Virus record (IMG/VR): IMGVR_UViG_2545824713_000012
Length of the DNA: 15,129 nucleotides
Origin: a virus
Taxonomy: Duplodnaviria; Heunggongvirae; Uroviricota; Caudoviricetes
Direction: 5' to 3' (one strand)
The notes under the pieces are model-generated. The model did not search any database. It had not been told where the DNA came from and saw nothing but the letters and a program-made list of their open reading frames with translations. Below, in pieces: positions 1,285 to 15,129 of this stretch. Every line of letters starts with the position of its first letter. Position 1 is the first letter of the stretch. The position numbers were made by a program, and so were the translations under genes.

Positions 1285-1330
1285 AGGTTGCTCCGGGCTA
1301 TGAAATAGAAAAATGAATCCGTTGAAGCCT

Positions 1331-1345
1331 GCTTTTTTATACTAA
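1331..1345. other. attL core (15-bp lambda-type overlap/core GCTTTTTTATACTAA) = host/prophage junction
   Basis: Exact lambda att core; left flank (tgaagcct) is the bacterial B arm next to ybhC, right flank is the phage P' arm directly upstream of the int 3' end. Confidence 0.9.
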
Positions 1346-1418
1346 GTTGGCATTATAAAAAAGCATTGCTTATCAATTTGTTGCAACGAACAGGTCACTA
1401 TCAGTCAAAATAAAATCA
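1346..1418. promoter_or_regulatory. attL P' arm with Int arm-type sites and IHF H' site region
   Basis: Sequence GTTGGCATTATAAAAAAGCATTGCTTATCAATTTGTTGCAACGAACAGGTCACTATCAGTCAAAATAAAATCATTATTTG matches the lambda P' arm as remembered (arm-type motifs CAGGTCACTAT / CAGTCAAAAT). Confidence 0.75.
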
Positions 1419-2489
1419 TTATTTGATTTCAATTTTGTCCCACTCCCTGCCTCTGTCATCACGATACTGTGATGCCATGGTGTCCGACTTATGCCCGAGA
1501 AGATGTTGAGCAAACTTATCGCTTATCTGCTTCTCATAGAGTCTTGCAGACAAACTGCGCAACTCGTGAAAGGTAGGCGGATCCCCTTCGAAGGAAAGAC
1601 CTGATGCTTTTCGTGCGCGCATAAAATACCTTGATACTGTGCCGGATGAAAGCGGTTCGCGACGAGTAGATGCAATTATGGTTTCTCCGCCAAGAATCTC
1701 TTTGCATTTATCAAGTGTTTCCTTCATTGATATTCCGAGAGCATCAACATGCAATGCTGTTGGGATGGCAATTTTTACGCCTGTTTTGCTTTGCTCGACA
1801 TAAAGATATCCATCTACGATATCAGACCACTTCATTTCGCATAAATCACCAACTCGTTGCCCGGTAACAACAGCCAGTTCCATTGCAAGTCTGAGCCAAC
1901 ATGGTGATGATTCTGCTGCTTGATAAATTTTCAGGTATTCGTCAGCCGTAAGTCTTGATCTCCTTACCTCTGATTTTGCTGCGCGAGTGGCAGCGACAGG
2001 GTTTGTTGTTATATGGCCTTCAGCTATTGCCTCTCGGAATGCATCGCTCAGTGTTGATCTGATTAACTTGGCTGACGCCGCCTTGCCCTCGTCTATGTAT
2101 CCATTGAGCATTGCCGCAATTTCTTTTGTGGTGATGTCTTCAAGTGGAGCATCAGGCAGACCCCTCCTTATTGCTTTAATTTTGCTCATGTAATTTATGA
2201 GTGTCTTCTGCTTGATTCCTCTGCTGGCCAGGATTTTTTCGTAGCGATCAAGCCATGAATGTAACGTAACGGAATTATCACTGTTGATTCTCGCTGTCAG
2301 AGGCTTGTGTTTGTGTCCTGAAAATAACTCAATGTTGGCCTGTATGGCTTCAGTGATTGCGATTCGCCTGTCTCTGCCTAATCCAAACTCTTTACCCGTC
2401 CTTGGGTCCCTGTAGCAGTAATATCCATTGTTTCTTATATAAAGGTTAGGGGGTAAATCCCGGCGCTCATGACTTCGCCTTCTTCCCAT
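1419..2489 (-). CDS. int: Lambda-type tyrosine integrase Int
   Basis: 356-aa ORF MGRRRSHERRDLPPNLYIRNNGYYCYRDPRTGKEFGLG... matches lambda Int along its full length; 3' end abuts attL P' arm. Confidence 0.97.
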   Translation of the reverse strand: MGRRRSHERRDLPPNLYIRNNGYYCYRDPRTGKEFGLGRDRRIAITEAIQANIELFSGHKHKPLTARINSDNSVTLHSWLDRYEKILASRGIKQKTLINYMSKIKAIRRGLPDAPLEDITTKEIAAMLNGYIDEGKAASAKLIRSTLSDAFREAIAEGHITTNPVAATRAAKSEVRRSRLTADEYLKIYQAAESSPCWLRLAMELAVVTGQRVGDLCEMKWSDIVDGYLYVEQSKTGVKIAIPTALHVDALGISMKETLDKCKEILGGETIIASTRREPLSSGTVSRYFMRARKASGLSFEGDPPTFHELRSLSARLYEKQISDKFAQHLLGHKSDTMASQYRDDRGREWDKIEIK

Positions 2490-2685
2490 TTCTGATCCTC
2501 TTCAAAAGGCTACCTGTTACTGGTCGATTTAAGTCAACCTTTACCGCTGATTCGTGGAACAGATACTCTCTTCCATCCTTAACCGGAGGAGGGAATATCC
2601 TGCACTCGCGTACCCATCGACGAACTGTTTCAAGGCTTCTTGGGCGTCGCTGGCGTGCGTTCCACTCCTGAAGTGTCAAGTACAT
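2467..2685 (-). CDS. xis: Excisionase Xis
   Basis: 72-aa ORF MYLTLQEWNARQRRPRSLETVRRWVRECRIFPPPVKDGREYLF... = lambda Xis; 23-nt overlap with int start as in lambda. Confidence 0.95.
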   Translation of the reverse strand: MYLTLQEWNARQRRPRSLETVRRWVRECRIFPPPVKDGREYLFHESAVKVDLNRPVTGSLLKRIRNGKKAKS

Positions 2686-2929
2686 CGCAAAGTCTCCGCA
2701 ATTACACGCAAGAAAAAACCGCCATCAGGCGGCTTGGTGTTCTTTCAGTTCTTCAATTCGAATATTGGTTACGTCTGCATGTGCTATCTGCGCCCACAGC
2801 ATTCAGTGGTCATAGCAGTCGCTGATGTTCTCGGCTTCGATAACTCTGTTGAATGGTTCTCCATTCCATTCACCTGTGACTCGGAAGTGCATTTATCATC
2901 TCCATAAAACAAAACCCGCCGTAGCGAGT

Positions 2930-2962
2930 TCAGATAAAAGAAATCCTCGTCAGTGCGAGGAT
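2930..2962 (-). terminator. Putative intrinsic terminator for leftward transcription (7-bp stem ATCCTCG/CGAGGAT, 6-nt loop, T-rich tail on the minus strand)
   Basis: Minus strand reads CATCCTCGCACTGACGAGGAT followed by TTCTTTTATCTG; sits between the divergent AT-rich segment and xis. Confidence 0.45.
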
Positions 2963-3134
2963 GCTGTTCATTGCTGCTATACACTTTTTTGCTCTCAACG
3001 TAAGCGGTAGCCCATTCTGTTGGGTTGGTGCAGTTGCTTTTAGGAAATGCTATTTACCCCTTAAATGTCGGCTGAAAGAGCTAAAATCCATGCAAAAAAT
3101 TTACGCAATTTTGTGTATTATTGTGCAGTAAGTA

Positions 3135-3737
3135 ATGAGCTATTTTCTGCGCAAAAAATGGATGGTAAATTTGTCCGGGTCAGGAAAAATTTTATGGGCG
3201 CTAAACATGAAAAAAGATTCGTATCCTTATTTGATTTGCATGACAGTTTCAGGGCTGATCTTTATTTTCCTTTTCTTCTGGTGGCGGGCAGATATCTACA
3301 GGGTCACGTTTCTTAATCAGAGTATATCCCACTATTACATTCTGTTTAGCATGGGAATAGCTTTTCTGTTATCTCTGTTTTGGGTTAAGAAGGGGATAGT
3401 AAAACAAAGAGGCTGGAAGAGTCTGTCAGCATACCTTAAGGTTTATGCAGGGATGTGCATATTTGCAGGATTTTTTCTGATTATACCCCTTACGACACTA
3501 ACTTATTTTTTGCCTGGAGAGACATCGTCTTATGTTGCACCGTATCGGTATACTTCCGGTAGTTCAAAAAGTTGTTCTGGAGCTGAGGTGGATGACCCCG
3601 ATCTACATGAGAATATTCGCATTTGCTATCCGTATGGCAATTATGAGTACGATAATATTATCTATGTTGAAAAGAAAATTAATATATTAGGTGCGGTAGT
3701 GACATATGCACAGACCGCGCGTGATGATACTGAATGA
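3135..3737 (+). CDS. Hypothetical integral membrane protein (3 predicted TM helices plus ~75-aa Cys-containing C-terminal domain); opposite-strand moron replacing lambda ea8.5/ea22
   Basis: 200-aa ORF in AT-rich DNA; hydrophobic segments YPYLICMTVSGLIFIFLFFWW, YYILFSMGIAFLLSLFWV, YAGMCIFAGFFLIIPLTTLTYFL; basic loop KKGIVKQRGWK between TM2 and TM3. Start uncertain: in-frame ATGs at 3135, 3162 and 3207 (MKKDSY...), none with a strong SD. Confidence 0.55.
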   Translation: MSYFLRKKWMVNLSGSGKILWALNMKKDSYPYLICMTVSGLIFIFLFFWWRADIYRVTFLNQSISHYYILFSMGIAFLLSLFWVKKGIVKQRGWKSLSAYLKVYAGMCIFAGFFLIIPLTTLTYFLPGETSSYVAPYRYTSGSSKSCSGAEVDDPDLHENIRICYPYGNYEYDNIIYVEKKINILGAVVTYAQTARDDTE

Positions 3738-3781
3738 TATAGTATATAGCGGGCAAGTTTTAGTTAATTTATCGAGGTAAT

Positions 3782-3805
3782 ATAATTTACCTCGACTCGT
3801 TTGTT
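3782..3805 (+). terminator. Putative terminator hairpin downstream of the membrane-protein gene (9-bp stem TCGAGGTAA/TTACCTCGA, loop TATAAT)
   Basis: Perfect 9-bp inverted repeat 45 nt after the stop at 3737, followed by CTCGTTTGTTCT. Confidence 0.4.
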
Positions 3806-3933
3806 CTGGTATTAATATTTCGCTTTACGACCGATTTTTATCTGATGATATCATGCGGTTTTCATATACTGACTTACTGTCTTTTCTCCGTTAGCGATTT
3901 TCTCCTGCTCAGCGATGATTTTATCTTTGGCTT

Positions 3934-3951
3934 CTAGTTAATTTCGCTCAC
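3934..3951 (-). pseudogene. Remnant of lambda ea22 start (VSEIN then stop): right-hand junction of the substituted segment
   Basis: Minus strand reads GTG AGC GAA ATT AAC TAG; lambda Ea22 begins MSEIN... as I remember it; start overlaps the orf73 stop (GTGA). Confidence 0.4.
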
Positions 3952-4169
3952 TTCGAACCTCTCTGTTTACTGATAAGCTCCAGATCCTCCTGGCAACTTG
4001 CACAAGTCCGACAACCCTGAACGACCAGGCGTCTTCGTTCATCTATCGGATCGCCACACTCACAACAATGAGTGGCAGATATAGCCTGGTGGTTCAGGCG
4101 GCGCATTTTTATTGCTGTGTTGCGCTGTAATTCTTCAATTTCTGATGCTGAATCAATGATGTCTGCCAT
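3948..4169 (-). CDS. Lambda Orf73-like TraR/DksA-family C4 zinc-finger protein
   Basis: 73-aa ORF MADIIDSASEIEELQRNTAIKMRRLNHQAISATHCCECGDPIDERRRLVVQGCRTCASCQ with CxxC...CxxC motif typical of TraR/DksA; position matches lambda orf73. Confidence 0.85.
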   Translation of the reverse strand: MADIIDSASEIEELQRNTAIKMRRLNHQAISATHCCECGDPIDERRRLVVQGCRTCASCQEDLELISKQRGSK

Positions 4170-4267
4170 CTTCCATTAATCCCTGAATTGTTGGTTAATA
4201 CGCTTGAGGGTGAATGCGAATAATAAAAAAGGAGCCTGTAGCTCCCTGATGATTTTGCTTTTCATGT

Positions 4268-4579
4268 TCATCGTTCCTTAAAGACGCCGTTTAACATGCC
4301 GATTGCCAGGCTTAAATGAGTCGGTGTGAATCCCATCAGCGTTACCGTTTCGCGGTGCTTCTTCAGTACGCTACGGCAAATGTCATCGACGTTTTTATCC
4401 GGAAACTGCTGTCTGGCTTTTTTGATTTCAGAATTAGCCTGACGGGCAATGCTGCGAAGGGCGTTTTCCTGCTGAGGTGTCATTGAACAAGTCCCATGTC
4501 GGCAAGCATAAGCACACAGAATATGAAGCCCGCTGCCAGAAAAATGCATTCCGTGGTTGTCATACCTGGTCTCTCTCAT
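4268..4579 (-). CDS. Lambda orf61-region ORF, here open for 103 aa
   Basis: Start overlaps the orf63 stop by 20 nt as in lambda; N-terminal part MRETRYDNHGMHFSGSGLHILCAYACRHG... is lambda-like; the ORF runs past where I remember the lambda stop, possibly a homopolymer-length difference. Confidence 0.55.
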   Translation of the reverse strand: MRETRYDNHGMHFSGSGLHILCAYACRHGTCSMTPQQENALRSIARQANSEIKKARQQFPDKNVDDICRSVLKKHRETVTLMGFTPTHLSLAIGMLNGVFKER

Positions 4580-4751
4580 CTGCTTCTGCTTTCGCCACCA
4601 TCATTTCCAGCTTTTGTGAAAGGGATGCGGCTAACGTATGAAATTCTTCGTCTGTTTCTACTGGTATTGGCACAAACCTGACTCCAATTTGAGCGAGGCT
4701 ATGTGCCATCTCGATACTCGTTCTTAACTCAACGGGAGATGCTTTGTGCAT
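4560..4751 (-). CDS. Lambda Orf63 homolog
   Basis: 63-aa [66 protein letters not shown], same length and position as lambda orf63. Confidence 0.8.
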   Translation of the reverse strand: MHKASPVELRTSIEMAHSLAQIGVRFVPIPVETDEEFHTLAASLSQKLEMMVAKAEADERDQV

Positions 4752-4912
4752 ACAGCTCCCCGTTTATTATTTATCTCCTCAGCCAGCCGCTGTGCTTTCA
4801 GGGGATTTCGGATAACAGAAAGGCCGGGAAATACCCAGCCTCGCTTCGTAACGGAGTAGACGAAAGTGATCGTGCCTACGCGGATATTATCGTGAGGATG
4901 TTTCATCGCCAT
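4724..4912 (-). CDS. Lambda Orf60a homolog
   Basis: [58 protein letters not shown]...; the lambda-length product would start at the second Met (4906). Confidence 0.8.
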
Positions 4913-5583
4913 TGCTCCCCAAATACAAAACCAATTTCAGCCAGTGCCTCGTCCATTTTTTCGATGAACTCCGGCACCATCTCGTCAAAACTCGCCATGT
5001 AATTTTCATCCCGCTCAACCACGACATAATGCAGGCCTTCACGCTTCATTCGTGGGTCATAGTTGGCAAAGTACCAGGCATCTTTTCGCGTCACCCACAT
5101 GCTGTACTGCACCTGGGCCATGTAAGCTGACTTTATGGCCTCGAAACCACCGAGCCGGAATTTCATGAAATCCCGGGAGGTAAACGGGCATTTCAGTTCA
5201 AGGCCGTTGCCGTCACTGCATAAACCATCGGGAGAGCAGGCGGTGCGCATACTTTCGTCGCGATAGATGATCGGGGATTCAGTAACATTCACGCCGGAAG
5301 TAAACTCAAACAGGGCTCTGGCGTCGTTCTCGTACTGTTTTCCCCAGGCCAGCGCCTTAGCATTAACTTCCGGAGCCACACCGGTGCAAACCTCAGCCAG
5401 CAGGGTGTGGAAGTAGGACATTTTCATGTCAGGCCACTTCTTTCCTGAGCGGGGCTTTGCTATCACGTTGTGAACTTCTGAAGCGGTGATGACGCCGAGC
5501 CGTAATTTGTGCCATGCATCATCCCCCTGTTCGACAGCTCTCACGTCGATCCCGGTACGCTGCAGGATAATGTCCGGTGTCAT
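4903..5583 (-). CDS. exo: Lambda exonuclease (Red alpha), 5'-3' dsDNA exonuclease
   Basis: 226-aa [72 protein letters not shown]... matches lambda Exo; ATGA overlap with bet. Confidence 0.97.
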
Positions 5584-6365
5584 GCTGCCACCTTCTGCTC
5601 AGTGGCTTTCTGTTTCAGGAATCCAAGAGCTTTCACTGCTTCGGCCTGTGTCAGTTCTGACGATGCGCGAATGTCGCGGCGAAATATCTGGGAACAGAGC
5701 GGCAATAAGTCGTCATCCCATGTTTTATCCAGGGCGATCAGCAGAGTGTTAATCTCCTGCATGGTTTCATCGTTAACCGGAGTGATGTCGCGTTCCGGCT
5801 GACGTTCTGCAGTGTATGCAGTATTTTCGACAATGCGCTCGGCTTCATCCTTGTCATAGATACCAGCAAATCCGAAGGCCAGACGGGCACACTGAATCAT
5901 GGCTTTATGCCGTAACATCCGTTTGGGATGCGACTGCCACGGCCCCGTAATTTCTCTGCCTTCGCGAGTTTTGAATGGTTCGCGGCGGCATTCATCCATC
6001 CATTCGGTAACGCAGATCGGATGATTACGGTCCTTGCGGTAAATCCGGCATGTACAGGATTCATTGTCCTGCTCAAAGTCCATGCCATCAAACTGCTGGT
6101 TTTCATTGATGATGCGGGACCAGCCATCAACGCCCACCACCGGAACGATGCCGTTCTGCTTATCAGGGAAGGCGTAAATTTCTTTCGTCCACGGATTAAG
6201 GCCGTACTGGTTGGCGACGATCAACAATGCGATGAACTGCGCATCGCTGGCATCACCTTTAAATGCCGTCTGGCGAAGAGTGGTGATCAGTTCCTGTGGG
6301 TCGACAGAATCCATGCCGACACGTTCAGCCAGCTTCCCTGCCAGCGTTGCGAGTGCTGTACTCAT
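5580..6365 (-). CDS. bet: Lambda Bet (Red beta) single-strand annealing protein
   Basis: 261-aa [71 protein letters not shown]... matches lambda Bet. Confidence 0.97.
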
Positions 6366-6370
6366 CCGTT

Positions 6371-6667
6371 TTATACCTCTGAATCAATATCAACCTGGTG
6401 GCGGGCAATAGTTTCAACCATGTACCGTATGTGTTCTGCCATGCGTTCCTGAAACTCAACATCGTCATCAAACGCACGGGTAATGGCTTTTTTGCTGGCC
6501 CCGTGGCGTTGCAAATGATCGATGCATAGCGATTCAAACAGGTGCTGGGGCAGGCCTTTTTCCATGTCGTCTGCCAGTTCTGCCTCTTTCTCTTCACGGG
6601 CGATCTGCTGGTAGTGACGCGCCCAGCTCTGAGCCTCAAGACGATCCTGAATGTAATAAGCGTTCAT
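6371..6667 (-). CDS. gam: Gam (RecBCD inhibitor), short 98-aa form only
   Basis: [60 protein letters not shown]... matches lambda Gam; strong SD AGGAG 8 nt upstream; in-frame TAA 19 codons upstream with no start codon in between. Confidence 0.93.
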
Positions 6668-6743
6668 GGCTGAACTCCTGAAAATGGCTGTGAAAATATC
6701 GCCCGCGAAATGCCAGGCTGATTAGGAAAACAGGAAAGGGGGG

Positions 6744-7034
6744 TTAGTGATTCAGGCCGTTACCGCGTCCGTCGAGAAAAACTTCCACGAGCAAATCACG
6801 GGTATAAGTGCGCTCGATGCCGCGATGCAGATAAAGCCGTCCGCGTAAATTAGCTGATGCAGTCCAGGTACCATCTTTGTGTTTGACCAGCATTCCTGGC
6901 ATGACCGCACCTCGATTAACGGTCTGCGTTCCGTAATGTTGATGAACCATAAAAACTCCTGCCCGTAAGCTGGGCTGCTGAACATATAAAGACTTCTGCG
7001 CGTATTCAGGCGGTGGATGGCCGCCGGTTGTCAT
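6744..7034 (-). CDS. Hypothetical protein, first ORF of the leftward early operon (occupies the lambda N/cIII/kil position; not N-like)
   Basis: 96-aa ORF MTTGGHPPPEYAQKSLYVQQPSLRAGVFMVHQHYGTQTVNRGAVMPGMLVKHKDGTWTASANLRGRLYLHRGIERTYTRDLLVEVFLDGRGNGLNH; no family recognised; no arginine-rich N-terminal motif; its stop coincides with the point where lambda-like gam-upstream sequence begins. Confidence 0.5.
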   Translation of the reverse strand: MTTGGHPPPEYAQKSLYVQQPSLRAGVFMVHQHYGTQTVNRGAVMPGMLVKHKDGTWTASANLRGRLYLHRGIERTYTRDLLVEVFLDGRGNGLNH

Positions 7035-7227
7035 AACTAAGCCGCCTCGTTGAAGCGACTAAGGTATGAAATGTTGAGTTAATTTCAGCTGGTCACACCG
7101 ACGTTCACGCGTCCGTTTCACCCCTCGCACTCCCCGAAGCCTGCTGAAATTCAAACTGCGGATCTAAGCGGTCATCGCAACGGTGAATCAGGTAGTTGCC
7201 GTATCGTTGTGTTGTTGCGATGAACTT

Positions 7228-7256
7228 ATTTAAAACTATAGTTGTTTTATCGTCAA
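7228..7256 (-). promoter_or_regulatory. PL-like early leftward promoter (-35 TTGACG, 17-nt spacer, -10 TTAAAT) overlapping operator repeats
   Basis: Minus strand GTTGTTGACGATAAAACAACTATAGTTTTAAAT is nearly colinear with the PR sequence GTTGTTGACTAAAAACAACCATAGTTTTAATCT at 8280-8312. Confidence 0.5.
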
Positions 7257-7390
7257 CAACAAAAGTTGTTTTATTGGTTGTTTTAGATATAACTGGTTGT
7301 ATTTAGGATGGATTTATTTTGTGACTTGAATCGCATAGCGATAACTGAAGCGAGGTTATGGTGGTTTTTTTAACGGTGTGTGTGATGAGG

Positions 7391-7423
7391 GGAGGGCAAA
7401 AGAAAACCCGGCACGGTGACCGG
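7391..7423 (-). terminator. Putative intrinsic terminator downstream of the repressor gene
   Basis: Minus strand CCCGG-tcaccgtg-CCGGG followed by TTTTCTTTTG; about 120 nt past the repressor stop. Confidence 0.45.
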
Positions 7424-7545
7424 GATTCTTACGCCGTTAGGTAAAGATATTATTGCGGTGGCTTAATATTACTACCTAGAGCAAAGATAGGAATTAGTTC
7501 TTTACTGAATGAGCACAATGCCCAGTTGATAATTTTTAATTGGTA

Positions 7546-8235
7546 CTACCCATGCTTCCTATATGTCTGCGGCATGCTCCCAATAACCTTACCGAAGATG
7601 AACACCCGGTTCATCTCGTCTTTCTCGATCGGGTCCCACGGTGAGTAGCTTTTGTTATCAGAGATGACCAGCAGCTTATTCTTCATCATTTGCAGGCGCT
7701 TTACATGGGCTGTGTCGTCGTACAGAAACGCATAGATACCATCACCGTCGAAAGATTTAACTGTGATATCAACGAACAGCAGATCACCTGGTTCGATCGT
7801 TCCTGACATGCTGTCACCACGCACGTTAATGATGCGGATATTTTCCGCCTTCCTACCATCGAACATGTGACGAGCATCGTCAAACGAGTACTCAACCGAG
7901 CGTAGAACTTCTACAAACTCACGGTTGATGACTCCCGGCCCAGCACTGACTTCTATATCAAGAACGTCAATCTTGAAGTATTTGGAATGGCTGACAGTTG
8001 ATTGTATTGGTTGCACTGTACTGTCTGACATATTTCCAACGCCAGAAGATAACCATTCTGCGCGCACACCCAAAGCGTTCGCGATCTCCACGATTTTAGT
8101 TGTTTGATTAGCTTTCCCTGTTTCGATTTTCTGAATAGCAGCCTGGCTAACCCCGACCAAATCCCCAAGCGCCTTTTGTGTAAGGCCTCGCGCTAATCTG
8201 GCTTCTTTAAGTCTTTCTGAGAGTGTTGTTTTCAT
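7546..8235 (-). CDS. CI-like prophage repressor (N-terminal HTH_XRE, C-terminal S24 LexA-type autopeptidase)
   Basis: MKTTLSERLKEARLARGLTQKALGDLVGVSQAAIQKIETGK... HTH; Ala-Gly site in VSAGPG; catalytic Ser in RGDSMSG and Lys in HVKRL. I prefer the ATG at 8235 (229 aa) over the ORF-track start at 8301 because the extra 22 codons would overlap the PR -35/operator. Confidence 0.85.
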   Translation of the reverse strand: MKTTLSERLKEARLARGLTQKALGDLVGVSQAAIQKIETGKANQTTKIVEIANALGVRAEWLSSGVGNMSDSTVQPIQSTVSHSKYFKIDVLDIEVSAGPGVINREFVEVLRSVEYSFDDARHMFDGRKAENIRIINVRGDSMSGTIEPGDLLFVDITVKSFDGDGIYAFLYDDTAHVKRLQMMKNKLLVISDNKSYSPWDPIEKDEMNRVFIFGKVIGSMPQTYRKHG

Positions 8236-8277
8236 AGTCCAAATGTACAACCAAGGTTTTATTCCATCAAACGAAAA

Positions 8278-8300
8278 TGGTTGTTGACTAAAAACAACCA
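8278..8300. promoter_or_regulatory. Candidate OR operator: 23-bp palindrome TGGTTGTT-N7-AACAACCA overlapping the PR -35
   Basis: Perfect 8-bp inverted arms; related half-sites ACAACCA/TGGTTGT recur at 8247-8253, 8324-8339 and in the PL region (7275-7281, 7294-7300). Confidence 0.5.
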
Positions 8301-8312
8301 TAGTTTTAATCT
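8284..8312 (+). promoter_or_regulatory. PR-like early rightward promoter (-35 TTGACT, 17-nt spacer, -10 TAATCT)
   Basis: Consensus-like sigma70 elements about 28 nt upstream of the cro-like ATG, which has SD GGAGG at 8330-8334. Confidence 0.6.
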
Positions 8313-8339
8313 TGATTCAAATTAACCACGGAGGTTGTT

Positions 8340-8570
8340 ATGAACCCAGCTATCAAAACAGCGATCAATATCGTTGGTTCACAAAAGAAACTGGGCGCTG
8401 CTTGCGAAGTTTCACAGCAGGCCGTCTATAAGTGGCTTCACAACAAAGCAAAGGTATCCCCTGAACATGTCGGCAGCATTGTTACGGCTACTGGTGGAGT
8501 AGTGAAGGCATACCAGATTCGCCCGGATCTTCCGAAGTTGTTTCCACACACCGAAAAGAACGCAGCTTAA
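8340..8570 (+). CDS. Cro-like HTH regulator (YdaS family)
   Basis: 76-aa ORF MNPAIKTAINIVGSQKKLGAACEVSQQAVYKWLHNKAKVSPEHVGSIVTATGGVVKAYQIRPDLPKLF; HTH plus the C-terminal RPD motif I associate with Rac YdaS; divergent from the repressor across the PR/operator region. Confidence 0.8.
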   Translation: MNPAIKTAINIVGSQKKLGAACEVSQQAVYKWLHNKAKVSPEHVGSIVTATGGVVKAYQIRPDLPKLFPHTEKNAA

Positions 8571-8582
8571 ATTTCCATTTCA

Positions 8583-8595
8583 CGCTCTTTAACAA
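8583..8595 (+). promoter_or_regulatory. boxA-like element CGCTCTTTAACAA (rrn-consensus type) in the cro-ydaT intergenic region
   Basis: 12/13 match to rrn boxA TGCTCTTTAACAA as remembered; no convincing boxB hairpin seen after it. Confidence 0.35.
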
Positions 8596-8639
8596 TAAGC
8601 AATCAACTTAACAGTCAATTCAAACTAAAGGAGTCAATT

Positions 8640-9179
8640 ATGCAACCACTTACATACCAACAGACTAGCGGATTTAGCCCGACTGCGGTGATAAATCGTT
8701 CTCAAACAAAACAGGTGCCAGGCCACGAAAAAATCCGTGATGCCGTCCGCGCCTGGTCGGCTGTAGATAATCAGGATGTCGTTGCCACACTCATTGTGAA
8801 TGAGTATCGGGAGCAGGGCGGCGGCACCATCGATTTCCCTGATGATGTCAGCCGTGCACGCCAGAAGCTGTTCCGCTTCCTCGATAACAAATTCGATTCT
8901 GAAAAATACCGAAATAATGTGCGTGAACTGACCCCGGCAATTCTGGCGGTACTACCGCTGGAATATCGCGGTTACCTGGTTGAGCAGGATAGCTTCATGG
9001 CTAGGTTGGCTGAAATGGAAAAGGAACTCAGTGAGGCAAAACAGGCTGTCATTCTCAACGCACCACGCCACCAGAAACTGAAGGAAATTAGTGAAGGTAT
9101 TGTGTCGATGTTTCGTGTGGACCCAGATCTGGCTGGTCCATTGATGGCGATGGTTACTACCATGCTGGGGGCGATATGA
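8640..9179 (+). CDS. YdaT-family protein (Rac prophage YdaT-like, in the cII position)
   Basis: 179-aa ORF; segments LIVNEYREQGGGTIDFP and LTPAILAVLPLEYRGYL resemble Rac YdaT (EEYLRQGGGELPL, KLIPAILAILPRELRHR) from memory; strong SD AAGGAG upstream. Confidence 0.75.
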   Translation: MQPLTYQQTSGFSPTAVINRSQTKQVPGHEKIRDAVRAWSAVDNQDVVATLIVNEYREQGGGTIDFPDDVSRARQKLFRFLDNKFDSEKYRNNVRELTPAILAVLPLEYRGYLVEQDSFMARLAEMEKELSEAKQAVILNAPRHQKLKEISEGIVSMFRVDPDLAGPLMAMVTTMLGAI

Positions 9180-9265
9180 CAGGTTCAGAAATGGCGAAAG
9201 CCGGTCTGCTGGAACAGAACCGACTTTCAGGTGCAAATCGTAACACACTCATTGCGGGAGGAATT

Positions 9266-10195
9266 ATGGCAAACACTGCTGAGATATTCAATTTTCCAGT
9301 GCCGGATGCGGCACAAAAGGAGCCGCGCGTGGCAGATCTCGATGATGGTTATACGCGCATTGCAAATGAGTTGCTGGAAGCTGTGATGCTGGCCGGATTA
9401 ACACAGCACCAGCTTCTGGTCTTCCTGGCTGTCATGCGCAAAACATATGGCTTTAATAAAAAACTGGATTGGGTGAGCAACGAGCAACTTTCCGAGTTGA
9501 CCGGGATATTGCCGCACAAGTGTTCTGCTGCAAAAAGTGTTCTGGTAAAGCGTGGGATTTTTATTCAGAGTGGGCGGAATATCGGCATTAATAATGTGGT
9601 CAGTGAATGGTCAACATTACCCGAATCAGGTAAGAAAAATAAAGTTTACCTGAAAGAGGTAAATTTACCTGAATCAGGTAAGAAAAGTTTACCCAAATCA
9701 GGTAAAGGCGTTTACCCGAATCAGGTAAACACAAAAGACAAACTAACAAAAGACAATATAAAACCTTTTTCGTCCGAGAATTCTGGCGAATCCTCTGACC
9801 AGCCAGAAAACGACTTTCCTTTGGAGAAACTGGATGCTGCAATTCAGAGCGGCAGCAAGTGGGGGACAGCAGAAGACCTGACCGCCGCAGAGTGGATGTT
9901 TAACATGGTGAAGACCATCGCGCCCTCAGCCAGAAAACCGAATTTTGCAGGGTGGGCTAACGATATCCGCCTGATGCGTGAACGTGACGGACGTAACCAC
10001 CGCGACATGTGCGTGCTGTTCCGCTGGGCATGCCAGGACAACTTCTGGTCCGGTAACGTGCTGAGTCCGGCCAAACTCCGCGACAAGTGGACCCAACTCG
10101 AAATCAACCGTAACAAGCAACAGGCTGGCGTGACAACCGGAAAATCAAAACTCGACCTGACAAACACTGACTGGATTTACGGGGTGGATTTATGA
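9266..10195 (+). CDS. O: Lambda O-type replication initiator
   Basis: MANTAEIFNFPVPDAAQKEPRVADLDDGYTRIANELLEA... aligns with lambda O N-terminus (MTNTAKILNFGRG...VADLDDGYARLSNMLLEA); C-terminal third is nearly identical to lambda O; SD GGGAGG before the ATG at 9266; the ORF-track start at 9176 is an upstream in-frame extension. Confidence 0.93.
   Translation: MANTAEIFNFPVPDAAQKEPRVADLDDGYTRIANELLEAVMLAGLTQHQLLVFLAVMRKTYGFNKKLDWVSNEQLSELTGILPHKCSAAKSVLVKRGIFIQSGRNIGINNVVSEWSTLPESGKKNKVYLKEVNLPESGKKSLPKSGKGVYPNQVNTKDKLTKDNIKPFSSENSGESSDQPENDFPLEKLDAAIQSGSKWGTAEDLTAAEWMFNMVKTIAPSARKPNFAGWANDIRLMRERDGRNHRDMCVLFRWACQDNFWSGNVLSPAKLRDKWTQLEINRNKQQAGVTTGKSKLDLTNTDWIYGVDL
9617..9773. repeat. Replication origin inside O: five 17-19-bp palindromic iterons (TTTACC-N7-GGTAAA) followed by an A/T-rich tract
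   Basis: Iterons at 9617-9633, 9645-9663, 9664-9682, 9688-9706, 9711-9729 (e.g. TTTACCCGAATCAGGTAAA), then ACACAAAAGACAAACTAACAAAAGACAATATAAAACCTTTTT; same organisation as lambda ori but different iteron sequence. Confidence 0.75.
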
Positions 10196-10893
10196 AAAAC
10201 ATCGCCGCACAGATGGTTAACTTTGACCGTGAGCAGATGCGCCGGATCGCCAACAACATGCCGGAACAGTACGACGAAAAGCCGCAGGTACAGCAGGTAG
10301 CGCAGATCATCAACGGTGTGTTCAGCCAGTTACTGGCAACTTTCCCGGCGAGCCTGGCTAACCGTGACCAGAATGAACTGAACGAAATCCGCCGCCAGTG
10401 GGTTCTGGCTTTCTGGGAAAACGGGATCACCACAATGGAACAGGTTAACGCTGGAATGCGCGTAGCCCGTCGGCAGAATCGACCATTCCTGCCATCACCC
10501 GGGCAGTTTGTCGCCTGGTGCCGGGAAGAAGCATCCGTTACCGCCGGGCTGCCAAACGCCAGCGAGCTGGTTGATATGGTTTACGAGTATTGCCGGAAGC
10601 GCGGGCTGTATCCGGATGCAGAGTCTTATCCGTGGAAATCAAACGCGCACTACTGGCTGGTTACCAACCTGTATCAGAACATGCGGGCCAATGCGTTGAC
10701 TGACGCGGAATTACGGCGCAAGGCTGCCGATGAACTGTCCTGTATGACCGCACGAATTAACCGTGGTGAGGCTATACCTGAACCAGTAAAACAACTTCCT
10801 GTCATGGGCGGTAGACCTCTAAATCGTGCACAGGCTCTGGCGAAGATCGCAGAAATCAAAGCTAAGTTTGGGCTGAAAGGAGCAAGGGTATGA
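10192..10893 (+). CDS. P: Lambda P replication protein (DnaB helicase loader)
   Basis: 233-aa ORF MKNIAAQMVNFDREQMRRIANNMPEQYDEKPQVQQVAQIINGVFSQLLATFPASLANRDQNE... near-identical to lambda P; ATGA overlap with O. Confidence 0.95.
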   Translation: MKNIAAQMVNFDREQMRRIANNMPEQYDEKPQVQQVAQIINGVFSQLLATFPASLANRDQNELNEIRRQWVLAFWENGITTMEQVNAGMRVARRQNRPFLPSPGQFVAWCREEASVTAGLPNASELVDMVYEYCRKRGLYPDAESYPWKSNAHYWLVTNLYQNMRANALTDAELRRKAADELSCMTARINRGEAIPEPVKQLPVMGGRPLNRAQALAKIAEIKAKFGLKGARV

Positions 10894-11192
10894 CGGGCAA
10901 AGAGGCAATTATTCATTACCTGGGGACTCATAAGAAATTCTGTGCGCAGGACGTTGCCGCGGTAACAGGCGCAACGGTAACCAGCATAAATCAGGCTGCG
11001 GCTAAAATGGCGCGGGCAGGAATCCTGGTCGTTGATGGTAAGGTCTGGCGAACGGTGTATTATCGGTTCGCTACCAGAGAAGAATGGGAAGGAAAGGTGA
11101 GCACGAATTTGATTTTTAAGGAGTGTCGCCAGAGTGCCGCGATGAAACGGGTATTGAGGGTATATAAAAGAACATCAATGGGTACACAATGA
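10890..11192 (+). CDS. ren: Ren-like protein with divergent C-terminus
   Basis: MTGKEAIIHYLGTHKKFCAQDVAAVTGATVTSINQAAAKMARAGILVVDGKVWRTVYYRFATREEWEGK... matches lambda Ren up to ...AAMKRVL, then ends RVYKRTSMGTQ instead of the lambda tail. Confidence 0.85.
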   Translation: MTGKEAIIHYLGTHKKFCAQDVAAVTGATVTSINQAAAKMARAGILVVDGKVWRTVYYRFATREEWEGKVSTNLIFKECRQSAAMKRVLRVYKRTSMGTQ

Positions 11193-11259
11193 TGAAACAG
11201 GTGAGTTGAGTTCAAACTGTAGTACAATTCTCTCCAGTTTGAACAGGAAAGAATATGCT

Positions 11260-11592
11260 ATGAATCCTTATATTTATCTTGGTGGTGCAATACTTGCAGA
11301 GGTCATTGGTACAACCTTAATGAAGTTTTCAGAAGGTTTTACACGGTTATGGCCATCTGTTGGTACAATTATTTGTTATTGTGCATCATTCTGGTTATTA
11401 GCTCAGACGCTGGCTTATATTCCTACAGGGATTGCTTATGCTATCTGGTCAGGAGTCGGTATTGTCCTGATTAGCTTACTATCATGGGGATTTTTCGGCC
11501 AACGGTTGGACCTGCCAGCCATTATAGGCATGATGTTGATTTGTGCCGGTGTGTTGGTTATTAATTTATTGTCACGAAGCACACCACATTAA
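11260..11592 (+). CDS. emrE: EmrE small multidrug resistance (SMR) efflux transporter
   Basis: 110-aa product MNPYIYLGGAILAEVIGTTLMKFSEGFTRLWPSVGTIICYCASFWLLAQTLAYIPTGIAYAIWSGVGIVLISLLSWGFFGQRLDLPAIIGMMLICAGVL... matches E. coli EmrE; the ORF-track start at 11206 is an upstream extension; SD AGGA before 11260. Confidence 0.9.
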   Translation: MNPYIYLGGAILAEVIGTTLMKFSEGFTRLWPSVGTIICYCASFWLLAQTLAYIPTGIAYAIWSGVGIVLISLLSWGFFGQRLDLPAIIGMMLICAGVLVINLLSRSTPH

Positions 11593-11622
11593 AAATAATT
11601 TGTTTTTAAACGACTAAAATAT

Positions 11623-11660
11623 GGAGGCTCGTATATTTATATGGGCCTCGTTTTATGCTT
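11623..11660 (+). terminator. Possible imperfect terminator hairpin after emrE
   Basis: GAGGC...GCCTC stem with a long AT loop followed by GTTTTATGCTTTTTG; weak. Confidence 0.3.
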
Positions 11661-11847
11661 TTTGTTAATGTCTTTAGTTTTTATTCATTCTTTTGTGCTT
11701 TCAAGATTATGGTGTAAGAAAATTGCAATACGATTATTGTTGTATATTCAAGATAATGTGACCTTAATTGTCTTTTTAAATAAAAATTAAACAAAAATCA
11801 TATCTCACCACTAAGGTTTATAAAAGCATACTTTAGCAGGTGTCACC

Positions 11848-13374
11848 ATGAAAAAAGCCATAGCATATATGCGATTTTCATCACCAGGTCAGATGTCTGG
11901 TGATTCATTAAACCGCCAGAGAAGGCTTATTACTGAATGGCTAAAGGTAAATAGTGATTATTACCTTGATACCGTAACGTATGAAGATTTGGGGTTAAGC
12001 GCATTCAATGGAAAGCATGCACAATCAGGAGCTTTTTCGGAATTTTTAGATGCTATAGAACATGGTTATATATTGCCAGGGACTACATTGTTAGTTGAAA
12101 GTCTGGACAGACTTTCAAGAGAAAAAGTCGGTGAAGCGATTGAGCGTCTGAAATTGATTTTGAATCACGGTATTGATGTTATAACTCTTTGCGATAATAC
12201 AGTCTATAATATTGACTCATTGAATGAGCCATATTCATTAATAAAAGCCATACTTATAGCACAAAGGGCAAATGAAGAAAGCGAGATAAAGTCAAGTCGG
12301 GTTAAATTATCATGGAAGAAAAAACGGCAGGATGCACTGGAGTCAGGCACGATTATGACGGCGTCTTGTCCGAGATGGCTCTCATTGGATGACAAAAGAA
12401 CGGCTTTTGTTCCAGACCCCGACAGGGTGAAAACTATTGAGCTAATTTTTAAACTCAGGATGGAAAGGCGCTCATTGAATGCAATAGCCAAGTATTTAAA
12501 TGATCATGCTGTAAAGAATTTCTCAGGAAAAGAAAGTGCATGGGGACCTTCTGTAATTGAAAAATTATTAGCGAATAAAGCTCTGATAGGTATATGCGTA
12601 CCTTCATATCGTGCAAGAGGTAAAGGAATAAGTGAAATCGCTGGCTATTATCCCAGAGTCATATCAGATGATTTGTTTTACGCTGTGCAGGAAATTCGGT
12701 TGGCACCTTTTGGTATTAGCAATAGTAGCAAAAATCCTATGTTGATAAATCTACTTCGAACAGTTATGAAGTGCGAGGCTTGTGGTAATACCATGATTGT
12801 TCATGCGGTATCTGGAAGTTTGCATGGCTATTATGTTTGTCCGATGAGAAGACTGCATCGATGTGACAGGCCATCAATAAAGAGAGATTTGGTTGATTAT
12901 AATATCATTAATGAGTTGCTTTTTAATTGTAGTAAAATCCAACCAGTTGAAAACAAGAAAGATGCTAATGAAACTTTAGAGTTGAAAATTATTGAGCTCC
13001 AGATGAAAATTAATAATTTAATTGCTGCATTATCTGTTGCGCCTGAAGTTACCGCTATAGCAGAAAAAATCAGAGTATTAGATAAGGAATTACGAAGGGC
13101 TTCTGTATCATTAAAAACTTTGAAGAGTAAAGCGGTGAGTTCACTTGGTGATTTTCATGCTATTGACTTAACCAGTAAAAATGGGCGAGAGCTATGTCGT
13201 ACACTTGCCTATAAAACATTCGAAAAAATCATAATCAATACAGATAATAAAACCTGTGATATCTATTTTATGAATGGCATTGTTTTTAAACACTATCCTT
13301 TAATGAAAACAATATCTGCCCAGCAGGCGATAAGTACTCTCAAATATATGGTTGATGGTGAGGTTTATTTTTGA
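11848..13374 (+). CDS. ybcK: Large serine recombinase (YbcK family; N-terminal resolvase/invertase catalytic domain, recombinase and zinc-ribbon domains)
   Basis: 508-aa ORF MKKAIAYMRFSSPGQMSGDSLNRQRRLITEWLK... with catalytic Ser in the YMRFSS motif; matches DLP12 YbcK as remembered; SD AGGTG upstream; AT-rich. Confidence 0.85.
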   Translation: MKKAIAYMRFSSPGQMSGDSLNRQRRLITEWLKVNSDYYLDTVTYEDLGLSAFNGKHAQSGAFSEFLDAIEHGYILPGTTLLVESLDRLSREKVGEAIERLKLILNHGIDVITLCDNTVYNIDSLNEPYSLIKAILIAQRANEESEIKSSRVKLSWKKKRQDALESGTIMTASCPRWLSLDDKRTAFVPDPDRVKTIELIFKLRMERRSLNAIAKYLNDHAVKNFSGKESAWGPSVIEKLLANKALIGICVPSYRARGKGISEIAGYYPRVISDDLFYAVQEIRLAPFGISNSSKNPMLINLLRTVMKCEACGNTMIVHAVSGSLHGYYVCPMRRLHRCDRPSIKRDLVDYNIINELLFNCSKIQPVENKKDANETLELKIIELQMKINNLIAALSVAPEVTAIAEKIRVLDKELRRASVSLKTLKSKAVSSLGDFHAIDLTSKNGRELCRTLAYKTFEKIIINTDNKTCDIYFMNGIVFKHYPLMKTISAQQAISTLKYMVDGEVYF

Positions 13375-13398
13375 GTAATAATCACTTTTTCAACCGTG

Positions 13399-13476
13399 CT
13401 ATAGTAAGAAAGTTAGGTAAGTACAATAAAATTATCTATCCTGAACGAAGCGTCCTGAGCTATGGTTTTACTATAG
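13399..13476. repeat. Inverted repeat pair CTATAGTAA(G/A)AA ... TTTTACTATAG flanking about 60 bp, between ybcK and the next ORF
   Basis: 9-bp perfect (12-bp imperfect) inverted repeats at 13399-13407 and 13468-13476; the right copy lies just upstream of the SD (AGGGA) of the 107-aa ORF. Confidence 0.4.
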
Positions 13477-13485
13477 GGACTGCCA

Positions 13486-13809
13486 ATGGATGCTGGCGTT
13501 CTCGTTCTAGCAGTTCAACAATCCCCAATCACAAAACAATTCACTGATAACGAACTTTGCACACTCGCCTGGTTATGGCGAGCAGGGAATGTGATGTTAA
13601 TTACCTACCAGAACGTTACTCCTCTTCTTCAGGTTGCGGAGCATCGTGAAGCTGGTCGCTTCACTTCTATCGAGCAAGAATATCCCCAGATACTCAACAG
13701 AGCGCGAGCAATCCTCGTCCGAGAAACGGCACATGTAAAACTTCAGCCGTGGCAGGATGATAAGTGGAGTCGAGTATTGCCGCATTTACCTCAGAATCTG
13801 TTTCAATAA
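13486..13809 (+). CDS. Hypothetical 107-aa protein (no family recognised)
   Basis: ORF MDAGVLVLAVQQSPITKQFTDNELCTLAWLWRAGNVMLITYQNVTPLLQVAEHREAGRFTSIEQEYPQILNRARAILVRETAHVKLQPWQDDKWSRVLPHLPQNLFQ with SD AGGGA 6 nt upstream. Confidence 0.5.
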   Translation: MDAGVLVLAVQQSPITKQFTDNELCTLAWLWRAGNVMLITYQNVTPLLQVAEHREAGRFTSIEQEYPQILNRARAILVRETAHVKLQPWQDDKWSRVLPHLPQNLFQ

Positions 13810-13983
13810 AGGCGCTAGTTAGTAAGGCTTCCGTCATTCTGCGATGACGGAAGTGCGGGCTGCGTACGGGAGAGCAATTGCATGAATAATATAAATATTC
13901 CGCTCACTCCATATAGCGATTTCTGATACAAACTTATCTATTGTGGTAAAATTATAGAAACAAACTTATAGCGTACTAACCAT

Positions 13984-14679
13984 ATGGACAATATTAATAA
14001 ACACGGGCTCTCAAGAAGAATACCTGAGACAATAAAACGTCAGATAAGGCAAAGGTGCGGCTTTGGCTGTGTAATTTGTGGATTTGGATTTTATGATTAT
14101 GAGCATTTTAAACCTGACTTCGTTGATGCCAAAGTACATGATCCGAATGGAATGACACTTCTTTGCTCCCAATGCAATCAAAAAAGAGCTCGTGGTAGAC
14201 TTTCAGCACAGACAGTGGAAATAGCTGACAGAAATCCCAAGTGCTTACAGGCTGGTTTTGCAAATGAAATGTTTGATTTTCATAATGAGCCTATAACAGT
14301 AAAATTTGCAGGAGTGACGTTTCATAACTGTCAAAATTTGATTGTAGTCAACGAACAACCCATTCTTTCTGTGAAACCTTCACCCATACCACATGGACCG
14401 ATGCTTTTATCAGGAATTTTCTGTAATTCTATTGGTAAGGAGACTTTACTGATAGATGAAAATGAATGGAAAGCTAAATCAGACAATTGGGATGTGGAGT
14501 GTACCGGCCCGCGTATAACAATACGACGTGGGCCAGGAGAGTTTGCCCTCGTTCTAAAAATGGAACCTCCAACAGGATTGATTGTTGAGCGTCTTGATAT
14601 GTTGTATGAAGGGGTCAGGATGAAAGGAGATAAAGATCTGCTGGAAGTTTTGAACCGCCCCGGGAATCCTGGAGACTAA
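13984..14679 (+). CDS. HNH-motif nuclease-domain protein with uncharacterised C-terminal domain; 3' end disrupted by IS insertion (last 9 codons are IS-derived)
   Basis: N-terminal CGFGCVIC...YDYEHFKP...[15 protein letters not shown] fits the HNH (beta-beta-alpha-Me, two CxxC) pattern; ORF is in frame into the IS terminal repeat starting at 14651, so the native C-terminus is missing; no SD seen. Confidence 0.6.
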
Positions 14680-14704
14680 ACTTCCTGAGAAAGAGGTAAA
14701 CAGG

Positions 14705-15031
14705 ATGACTAAAAATACTCGTTTTTCCCCCGAAGTCCGTCAACGGGCAGTCCGTATGGTTCTGGAAAGTCAGAGCGAATATGACTCACAATGGGCGACA
14801 ATTTGTTCCATTGCTCCAAAGATTGGCTGTACGCCGGAGACTCTGCGTGTCTGGGTTCGCCAGCATGAGCGGGATACCGGGGGCGGTGATGGAGGGCTCA
14901 CCACCGCTGAACGTCAGCGTCTGAAAGAGCTGGAACGTGAAAATCGTGAACTGCGCCGCAGTAACGATATCCTTCGCCAGGCTTCCGCTTATTTTGCGAA
15001 GGCGGAGTTCGACCGCCTCTGGAAAAAATGA
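14705..15031 (+). CDS. IS3-family transposase OrfA (HTH DNA-binding subunit)
   Basis: 108-aa [111 protein letters not shown]. Confidence 0.9.
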
Positions 15032-15129
15032 TGCCACTGCTGGATAAGCTGCGTGAGCAGTACGGGGTCGGACCGCTATGCAGCGAACTGCATATTGCCC
15101 CGTCAACGTATTACCACTGTCAGCAACAG
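15027..15129 (+). CDS. IS3-family transposase OrfB (DDE catalytic subunit), 5' partial within window
   Basis: -1 frame relative to orfA; [34 protein letters not shown]...; overlaps the orfA stop across an A-rich slippery stretch (GGAAAAAATGATG). Confidence 0.8.

Follow-up and report, generated by a model that had tools for sequence, protein, structure and literature searches.

Several described bacterial systems bear comparison with the locus considered here. BstA is an experimentally validated abortive-infection protein of prophages (bioRxiv 10.1101/2020.07.13.199331). DS-7 ('SVIR', WP_225403053.1) is reported from the DefensePredictor screen (PMC13092281) as a single-gene defence protein of Escherichia coli. 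The present locus lies in a stretch of 15,129 nucleotides of Caudoviricetes DNA (IMG/VR record IMGVR_UViG_2545824713_000012), the whole of which is referred to as the window. Near the right end of a lambdoid prophage in this window is a gene for a protein that joins an N-terminal HNH domain to a C-terminal domain of no recognized family, and its 3' end is replaced by an insertion sequence (IS). The gene is a reasonable, though unproven, candidate for an undescribed defence nuclease.

The reading favoured here, for which the chances of being right or wrong seem about even, is that the gene encodes a stand-alone, sensor-gated immune nuclease that is carried as a prophage moron and has been inactivated in this copy. 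Its mode of action would be as follows. (i) The intact cassette would provide a protein of 260 amino acids (aa) with a basic N-terminal HNH DNase domain and an acidic, all-beta C-terminal domain. (ii) This protein might be expressed in the lysogen from a promoter-like site of its own. (iii) The acidic beta domain would serve as sensor and autoinhibitor, keeping the basic HNH domain off DNA. (iv) A phage-derived trigger would bind or displace the beta domain, and the HNH domain would be released. (v) Cleavage of DNA by the freed domain would then stop a superinfecting phage, either through abortive infection or by destroying the phage DNA directly. Five points argue for a role in defence: the slot is shared with bstA and lies close to one that can carry PD-Lambda-1; the gene recurs as a moron in several lineages; it is nearly absent from lytic phage genomes; the family combines a conserved effector with a variable, putative sensor; and Cap5 and DS-7 are precedents for an N-terminal HNH domain followed by a C-terminal sensor. 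An initial annotation, made from the sequence alone, had proposed a defence or toxin system formed by this gene and a 107-aa open reading frame (ORF) upstream of it. The role it suggested is still plausible, given bstA in the same slot and PD-Lambda-1 one slot upstream; the two-gene form is refuted by the evidence below.

Architecture and family of the HNH protein

A search for an allele free of the IS, as the initial annotation had advised, recovered the intact 260-aa protein (WP_001348590.1, annotated 'hypothetical protein'). The HNH motif previously recognized in the translation reads C29xxC32, E40-H41 and C61xxC64-N65, and an alignment of 35 homologues shows all of them to be invariant or almost so; in some distant members CxxCH replaces CxxCN. 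Motif, profile match and fold match all place the protein in the HNH (beta-beta-alpha-metal) superfamily. A weak HNH match is the only one obtained in a Pfam scan, and an NCBIfam search gave none. In an AlphaFold2 model computed from the 35-sequence alignment (predicted local distance difference test score, pLDDT, 88.9; predicted template modelling score, pTM, 0.81), residues 1-92 are predicted to form helices and the HNH core, and residues 94-246 about 17 beta strands. This supports the earlier description of an HNH domain fused to an uncharacterized C-terminal domain. Foldseek comparisons of the latter with PDB and BFVD gave nothing significant, and a sequence-profile search against PDB chains found nothing.

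The two parts of the protein differ in conservation and in charge. Pairwise identity averages 72% in the HNH domain (residues 1-92), 50% in the beta domain (93-222) and 35% in the tail (223-260). The median isoelectric point (pI) is about 9 for the HNH domain and 4.85 for the whole of residues 93-260, with a median charge of about -8; the beta domain of the window protein has a pI of 5.3. A profile search with the beta domain alone returned just HNH-fused proteins or fragments, and no swapping of effectors was seen. About a quarter of the distant representatives carry a third, variable C-terminal segment, which contains TPR or CxxCxxCC in two and is mostly unassigned, and some of the beta-domain profile matches end in a SEC-C motif. 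The extra domains of the long members (TPR, CxxCxxCC, SEC-C or none) were considered as a functional clue and set aside as not diagnostic.

These properties bear on the possibility that the protein is a solitary restriction endonuclease, Type IV-like or otherwise directed at DNA itself, whose C-terminal domain would read foreign DNA with neither trigger nor cell death. The HNH gene stands alone, with no methyltransferase or immunity partner, and a few of its neighbours in other genomes are restriction-modification parts (Mrr, type I specificity, type IIG), all of which would suit such an enzyme. Yet the readers represented in PDB (SRA, EVE/PUA-like, McrA-N) go unmatched beyond the HNH domain, no recognizable modified-DNA reader domain (the same three or a sulphur-binding one) was found, and acidity of the degree reported above is unusual for a DNA-reading module. 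We regard this alternative as unlikely. Trigger-gated activation is preferred here to reading of modified DNA, as the C-terminal domain is acidic and resembles no known reader of modified bases; this preference is the weakest link of the argument.

The family is large. A word-indexed search yields 305 clusters at 90% identity, and a profile search yields 2,672 clusters at 50% identity with E < 1e-3, of which 810 have E < 1e-30. The loci come from Gamma-, Beta- and Alphaproteobacteria, Cyanobacteria, Planctomycetota, Chloroflexota, Acidobacteriota and Bacillota, together with one metagenome-assembled genome of Methanothrix. For 80 diverse loci, blastp clustering of the ORFs that measure 60 aa or more and lie up to 6 kb to either side disclosed no recurrent neighbour. 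Neither tblastx of the 400-bp flanks on each side nor alignment of the upstream regions revealed conserved flanking DNA. Intergenic gaps around the homologues have medians of 115 and 107 bp, and the orientation of the neighbours is mixed. With no recurrent ORF, no conserved flanks and no fixed orientation of its neighbours, the HNH gene is an autonomous, solitary unit. A type II toxin-antitoxin module was also considered and rejected, as no conserved flanking ORF or DNA could serve as a small antitoxin. The only hint of a lineage-specific neighbour comes from three loci of marine gammaproteobacteria, Salicola, Rheinheimera and Aliidiomarina (L037, L043, L044), which share translated similarity just downstream.

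The 139 immediate neighbours in these 80 loci include, as defence genes, two of Mrr type, two of Schlafen AlbA_2 type and one HEPN gene, and, as single cases, a type IIG/DrmMI-like, a type I specificity and an SNF2 (ZorD/DpdE-like) gene; the remainder are phage or housekeeping genes. In enterobacterial prophages the HNH gene recurs between the replication genes and the nin/Q region. The homologous proteins are 62% identical in an E. coli Rac-like prophage, 75% in Enterobacter prophages and 62% in Klebsiella phage ST846-OXA48phi9.2. Of 50,697 deposited phage genomes, a single one encodes a homologue. Between homologues the proportion of synonymous differences (pS) is about 0.8, which is saturated, and that of nonsynonymous differences (pN) is 0.16-0.27 in both domains, so that strong purifying selection acts over the full length.

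In the Enterobacter prophages (L087/L088 9806-14213) the HNH gene is followed by genes for a 459-aa RES-domain protein and for proteins of 476 and 697 aa. The latter two have no Pfam family, none of the three is in PADLOC, and PADLOC gave nothing strong for the neighbouring cargo of the Enterobacter and E. coli Rac-like prophages. The run may be another accessory or defence cluster.

The cargo slot between ant and the nin region

The boundaries of the HNH cassette were defined by comparing the intact locus of E. coli strain 600468 (L001) with seven loci that carry seven other types of cargo. In six of the seven, the right junction falls at position 16398 of L001, 10 nt past the HNH stop codon; in the seventh it lies 3 nt earlier. 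Left junctions fall within window positions 13657-13860. The right flank consists of a hairpin, a 33-aa ylcH-like ORF and ybcN, which marks the start of the nin region. This flank was located 3,523 times, in 2,942 of 5,426 complete E. coli genomes, and HNH cargo is found in 79 genomes of this species. When intact, the cassette measures about 0.9 kb and holds one gene, with some 120-180 bp upstream of it and 10 bp downstream; window positions 13861-14650 are its 5' 85%. Its content of guanine plus cytosine (GC) is 40%, as against 49-50% in the flanking phage genes.

At least ten cargo types and one empty site were distinguished among 16 annotated slot loci. They include a BstA homologue of 309 aa in E. 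coli SCU-171 (PADLOC, E = 3.6e-121), a HEPN protein with a 133-aa partner in O157:H7, hypothetical proteins of 169, 168, 118 and 58+210 aa, an alpha/beta hydrolase encoded on the opposite strand, and a YajG-like lipoprotein with a glycine-zipper protein. The ybcL-ybcM pair represents the K-12 state; its place after ybcK in K-12-type prophages, which the initial annotation had mentioned, is confirmed by annotated loci. In one strain the slot holds essentially nothing. Most of the other cargos belong to no PADLOC or Pfam family. Conserved flanks, unrelated and interchangeable inserts and a deviant base composition identify this site as a general moron slot of lambdoid prophages. The uncharacterized cargos of 168, 169, 118 and 58+210 aa, for which neither Pfam nor PADLOC has a family, lie at L091 4629-5558, L093 4669-5175, L094 4392-4748, L095 4047-4556, L096 3987-4792 and L104 2486-2995, and the 169-aa type is common.

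A second variable slot, from ren to ant, lies one step upstream. In the window it is occupied by emrE-ylcJ-ybcK, of which ybcK has 36.5% GC, and in an O157:H16 strain (L095 888-2390) by PD-Lambda-1 (PADLOC, E = 1.9e-198). Strain 99RCEF (L096 1479-3130) carries a GNAT gene and two Arc-family genes at this site. The border on the right of the cargo slot, made up of the hairpin and the 5' part of the ylcH-like ORF (L001 16422-16559; L092 3159-3296; L095 2699-2796), is duplicated upstream of ant in O157-type prophages with 87-91% identity, so that it directly flanks the module of ant plus cargo. The window has no second copy. The duplicated segment could act as a recombination anchor for the shuffling of cassettes.

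The distribution of the gene invites the explanation that it is a selfish, free-standing homing endonuclease, which would cut slot alleles that lack it and copy itself by recombinational repair. HNH is a common homing-endonuclease fold, and several features would agree with this explanation: the cassette is compact, consists of one gene and ends precisely, at a right junction 10 nt past the stop codon; it occurs sporadically among near-identical prophages; and prophages integrated at different attachment sites, one at ybhC and one at argU, carry identical copies of it. The junction, however, is a property of the slot and not of the HNH gene, since many unrelated cargos have the same one. Pfam gives a weak HNH match and no DNA-binding module; members are nearly absent from phage genomes and occur in single copy on chromosomes of distant phyla, with no conserved host gene around them; and the whole length of the protein is under strong purifying selection. 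Homing is judged very unlikely. A packaging nuclease of the terminase-associated type (HK97 gp74) was rejected: the gene belongs to the early region, about 6.7 kb upstream of nohD and the terminase in the intact locus, and its product of 260 aa has an extra domain. The initial annotation had named both kinds of enzyme as outcomes that would overturn its proposal, and neither was borne out.

The position of the gene also suggests a nuclease that benefits the phage itself, acting from the early/nin region in recombination, in the processing of replication intermediates or in the degradation of host DNA during the lytic cycle. The gene has the orientation of the early-right operon, the genes just downstream of it (ybcN, ninE, ybcO and rusA) serve DNA transactions, the same region is occupied in four lambdoid lineages, and the BFVD matches to the HNH domain include a NinG-annotated protein. 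Its rarity speaks the other way: only 79 of about 3,500 slot instances carry it, so that lambdoid growth does not need it, and the single homologue among deposited phage genomes fits poorly with a lytic function. Most members of the family, moreover, sit in non-phage chromosomal contexts in many phyla, and the gene has a promoter-like site of its own and a foreign GC content. A phage-benefit role is thus held to be quite unlikely, and the defence reading remains the preferred one.

Anatomy of the locus in the window

The prophage comprises int/xis, exo-bet-gam, a cI-like repressor, O-P-ren, emrE and ybcK. It abuts ybhC, which is the attachment region of lambda and not the argU site of DLP12. 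Positions 1-14650 of the window match strain 600468 with 99.993% identity and one mismatch, and the match ends at 14650. In that strain the intact allele and the DNA upstream of it occupy about 4675385-4676380 of NZ_CP025849.1, which corresponds to L001 15424-16420. A near-identical emrE-ybcK-ant'-HNH-nin module also occurs in an argU-integrated prophage (L002), which indicates exchange of the module between prophages. A moron-like 200-aa ORF (WP_001348592.1, hypothetical) is encoded on the strand opposite to int/xis and the early-left operon; PADLOC has no match for it. Coordinates are collected in table 1.

Table 1. Features of the window and their positions.
Feature	Position	Strand	Remarks
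ybhC	1-1284	-	adjoins the prophage
Integrase gene	1419-2489		within region 1-2685
200-aa ORF, WP_001348592.1	3135-3737	+	moron-like
Variable slot, ren to ant	11206-13374		emrE-ylcJ-ybcK
ybcK, 508-aa serine recombinase	11848-13374		
ant remnant, 107-aa ORF	13486-13809	+	Pfam P22_AR_C; left flank of cargo slot
Spacer, 174 bp	13810-13983		
Hairpin, 10-bp stem/6-nt loop	13828-13837/13844-13853	+	3' end of ant remnant
Cassette-specific region upstream of HNH gene	13861-13983	+	promoter-like site and direct repeat
Promoter-like site	13923-13952		CTGATA-18-TAAAAT with TG
Direct repeat, two copies	13925-13937/13957-13969		10-nt exact core
HNH ORF as read, 231 aa	13984-14679	+	
HNH nuclease domain (predicted), aa 1-92	13984-14259	+	Zn-finger/catalytic core C25-N65 at 14056-14178
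All-beta C-terminal domain (predicted), aa 93-222 of 260, truncated	14260-14650	+	
IS3-family element, left end	14651-15129	+	orfA, ALIL pseudoknot
orfA of the IS	14705-15031		
ALIL -1 frameshift pseudoknot	14986-15102		Rfam RF01497, 120 bits

The sequence features described in the initial annotation are present where table 1 places them: two co-directional ORFs of 107 and 231 aa downstream of ybcK, a 174-bp spacer between them, a perfect hairpin (13828-13853) and a 10-bp direct repeat within that spacer, and a disrupted 3' end of the HNH gene in an accessory region of the prophage. The disruption is due to an IS3-family element, recognized by its orfA and by a strong Rfam match to the ALIL pseudoknot; RefSeq labels the matching sequence 'IS3 family transposase', and we take the element to be IS629/IS1203-like. 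Because it begins at 14651, the 231-aa ORF is a chimera of 222 native codons and nine IS codons with the stop (14651-14679). A search of 5,426 complete E. coli genomes found the exact junction between HNH gene and IS in none of them. Residues 223-260, which are lost, contain G243, which is invariant, and W229, which is nearly so, as well as three strands predicted with high pLDDT. As the IS replaces the last 38 residues, part of what the model shows as the folded beta domain, the window copy is most likely non-functional. An A-N-D-P-x-Y/F motif (residues ~250-258), also deleted by the IS, ends most long-form members after a poorly conserved stretch; short-form members of about 247 aa, for example in Pseudomonas, have no such motif.

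The 107-aa ORF had been described as belonging to no recognizable family. It matches Pfam P22_AR_C (PF10548) with E = 1.3e-15 and 57.6 bits (cutoff 22.4), an assignment that the RefSeq annotation shares, and it also matches antirepressor PHROGs. It corresponds to the last ~103 residues (~132-234) of Bro-N/P22AR_C antirepressors of 202-234 aa, with 77-82% identity; in a full-length relative Bro-N occupies residues 52-132, which the ORF lacks. Nucleotide homology to the antirepressors starts at 13487, one base past the A of the ATG, and the DNA upstream is unrelated. In strain 401651 the remnant has an internal stop. Judged by its homology, the ORF is a 5'-truncated remnant of ant, decaying DNA of the slot flank and not a partner of the HNH gene. 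The P22AR_C domain is shared with antirepressors of the P22 Ant type. Unlike these, the remnant lacks the Bro-N domain and the Arc/Mnt-type regulators of the intact locus L096, where two Arc-family genes precede ant in an arrangement like the P22 immI module, and its ATG is fortuitous.

About 870 E. coli genomes contain either the remnant or the intact gene from which it derives; the HNH gene follows in 79 of them and other cargo in about 790. No ant remnant lies beside the HNH gene in E. coli Rac-like, Enterobacter or Klebsiella prophages. None accompanies the homologue in a Pseudomonas prophage, which is counter-oriented within the early-left operon, or that in Comamonas, which is chromosomal and adjoins a divergent XRE regulator. 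Thus the co-occurrence that the initial annotation proposed to check for failed in the 80 homologue loci and in four other enterobacterial prophage lineages, and the idea of a two-gene cargo falls with it.

The hairpin of the spacer has a folding energy of -20.7 kcal/mol (z = -2.4 against shuffled sequences), and we estimate that a perfect 10-bp stem would arise by chance in 174 bp with an expectation of about 1e-3. The surrounding DNA is common to loci with other cargo, and homology to L093 and L095 extends to window position 13860. The low chance expectation and this conservation indicate that the hairpin is real; its location in shared DNA assigns it to the 3' end of ant and not to the HNH cassette. 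A consensus scan makes no terminator call here, and no U-tract follows the stem. The direct repeat, GA(T/A)ACAAACTTAT, is mildly unlikely in 174 AT-rich bases (a few per cent by our estimate). An alignment shows that neither the repeat nor the rest of the cassette-specific upstream region is conserved before homologues in other genera, so any function of that region is unproven. An Rfam scan of spacer and upstream region matched no family.

A two-gene defence or toxin system of the 107-aa protein and the HNH protein, or a toxin-antitoxin variant in which the spacer would encode a small or an RNA antitoxin, would account for two facts: the ORFs are adjacent and co-directional in 79 E. coli genomes, and a hairpin and a direct repeat lie between them. 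Other findings contradict it. The 107-aa ORF is a truncated ant that is common to other cargos, decays in some strains and is absent beside HNH homologues elsewhere; the hairpin belongs to the shared flank; and the upstream DNA and flanks are neither conserved nor matched in Rfam. This explanation is hardly tenable.

Proposed role and comparison with known systems

Several points weigh against an immune function. The proposed gating by the beta domain is drawn solely from patterns of charge and conservation. PADLOC-DB 2.0.0 places the protein in no known system: no model matches significantly, and a weak match to the PtuB HNH model (E = 0.031) is all that it returns. Defence genes are few among the 139 immediate neighbours. 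An unbiased sample of the slot comprises ybcL-ybcM, the alpha/beta hydrolase, lipoproteins, 169-aa proteins of no assigned function and an empty site, none of them in PADLOC; guilt by location is only moderate, since the slot also carries such non-defence cargo. Since its neighbours ybcN, ybcO and rusA are phage genes of recombination and repair, the gene may also serve the DNA metabolism of the phage itself. A literature search found no report of a phenotype, nuclease assay or expression for any family member, no mention of WP_001348590 and nothing relevant on ybcK, HNH and prophage. WP_001348590 is not among the DefensePredictor supplement entries in the part of that source that was accessible (PMC13092281).

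The wider claim, that the homologues form an unrecognized and widespread family of single-protein immune nucleases in which the beta domain is a new sensor fold that restrains the nuclease until it is bound by a component of a phage, and that this family spreads as one-gene cassettes by way of prophage cargo slots, is possible though doubtful. The family is uncharacterized, and its C-terminal fold has no solved relative; a single-protein nuclease with a regulatory domain, carried as a prophage moron, is of a well-known kind. Should the intact allele protect its host against phages, one gene for a protein of 260 aa would make up a compact defence system, and the structure of its regulatory domain would be new. 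It would then also offer a model of how a bare HNH nuclease is kept harmless with neither antitoxin nor methyltransferase, and the size of the family would make it relevant to the prediction of phage host range and to phage therapy in Enterobacteriaceae, Pseudomonas and Burkholderia. Whatever the function, the sharply bounded slot upstream of ylcH/ybcN, which more than half of the complete E. coli genomes possess, could be mined systematically for cargo. For the window itself the practical message is modest: the copy is inactivated by an IS, and the supposed 107-aa partner is gene debris.

Comparison with known systems narrows the field. Among the Type IV HNH restriction endonucleases (EcoKMcrA, TagI, ScoMcrA and VcaM4I), McrA and TagI have the reverse domain order, with the reader N-terminal and the HNH domain C-terminal, and the readers of modified bases in these enzymes show no match to the beta domain, which is acidic. 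Septu and the retron-associated TIGR02646 proteins are also set apart. The PtuB match lies below a meaningful threshold, the NCBIfam model TIGR02646 is unmatched, and there is no retron neighbour; the ABC-type ATPase PtuA is absent at the E. coli locus, and no neighbour is conserved in the 80 loci. DS-7, as described in PMC13092281, resembles the HNH protein in pairing an N-terminal, Cap5-like HNH domain with a non-enzymatic C-terminal domain, there a DUF2634, baseplate-protein-like one. Homology between the two was rejected, with an hhalign probability of 0.3%, different C-terminal domains and lengths of 368 and 260 aa. Cap5, the HNH-SAVED effector of cyclic-oligonucleotide-based anti-phage signalling systems (CBASS; PDB 7rwk, 8fmf), is a precedent for an N-terminal HNH domain followed by a C-terminal sensor. 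The HNH protein, by contrast, has no SAVED match, its C-terminal part is predicted to be all-beta and is acidic, no CD-NTase occurs among its neighbours, and PADLOC finds no Cap5 match.

BstA is unrelated in sequence and fold, being a KilA-N-like DNA-binding protein and not a nuclease (bioRxiv 10.1101/2020.07.13.199331), and nothing at the HNH locus has been shown to correspond to aba, the self-immunity element described for BstA. The likeness lies in genetic organization: in a DLP12-like sister prophage of E. coli SCU-171, bstA is a single-gene prophage moron in the same slot, bounded by the same right junction.

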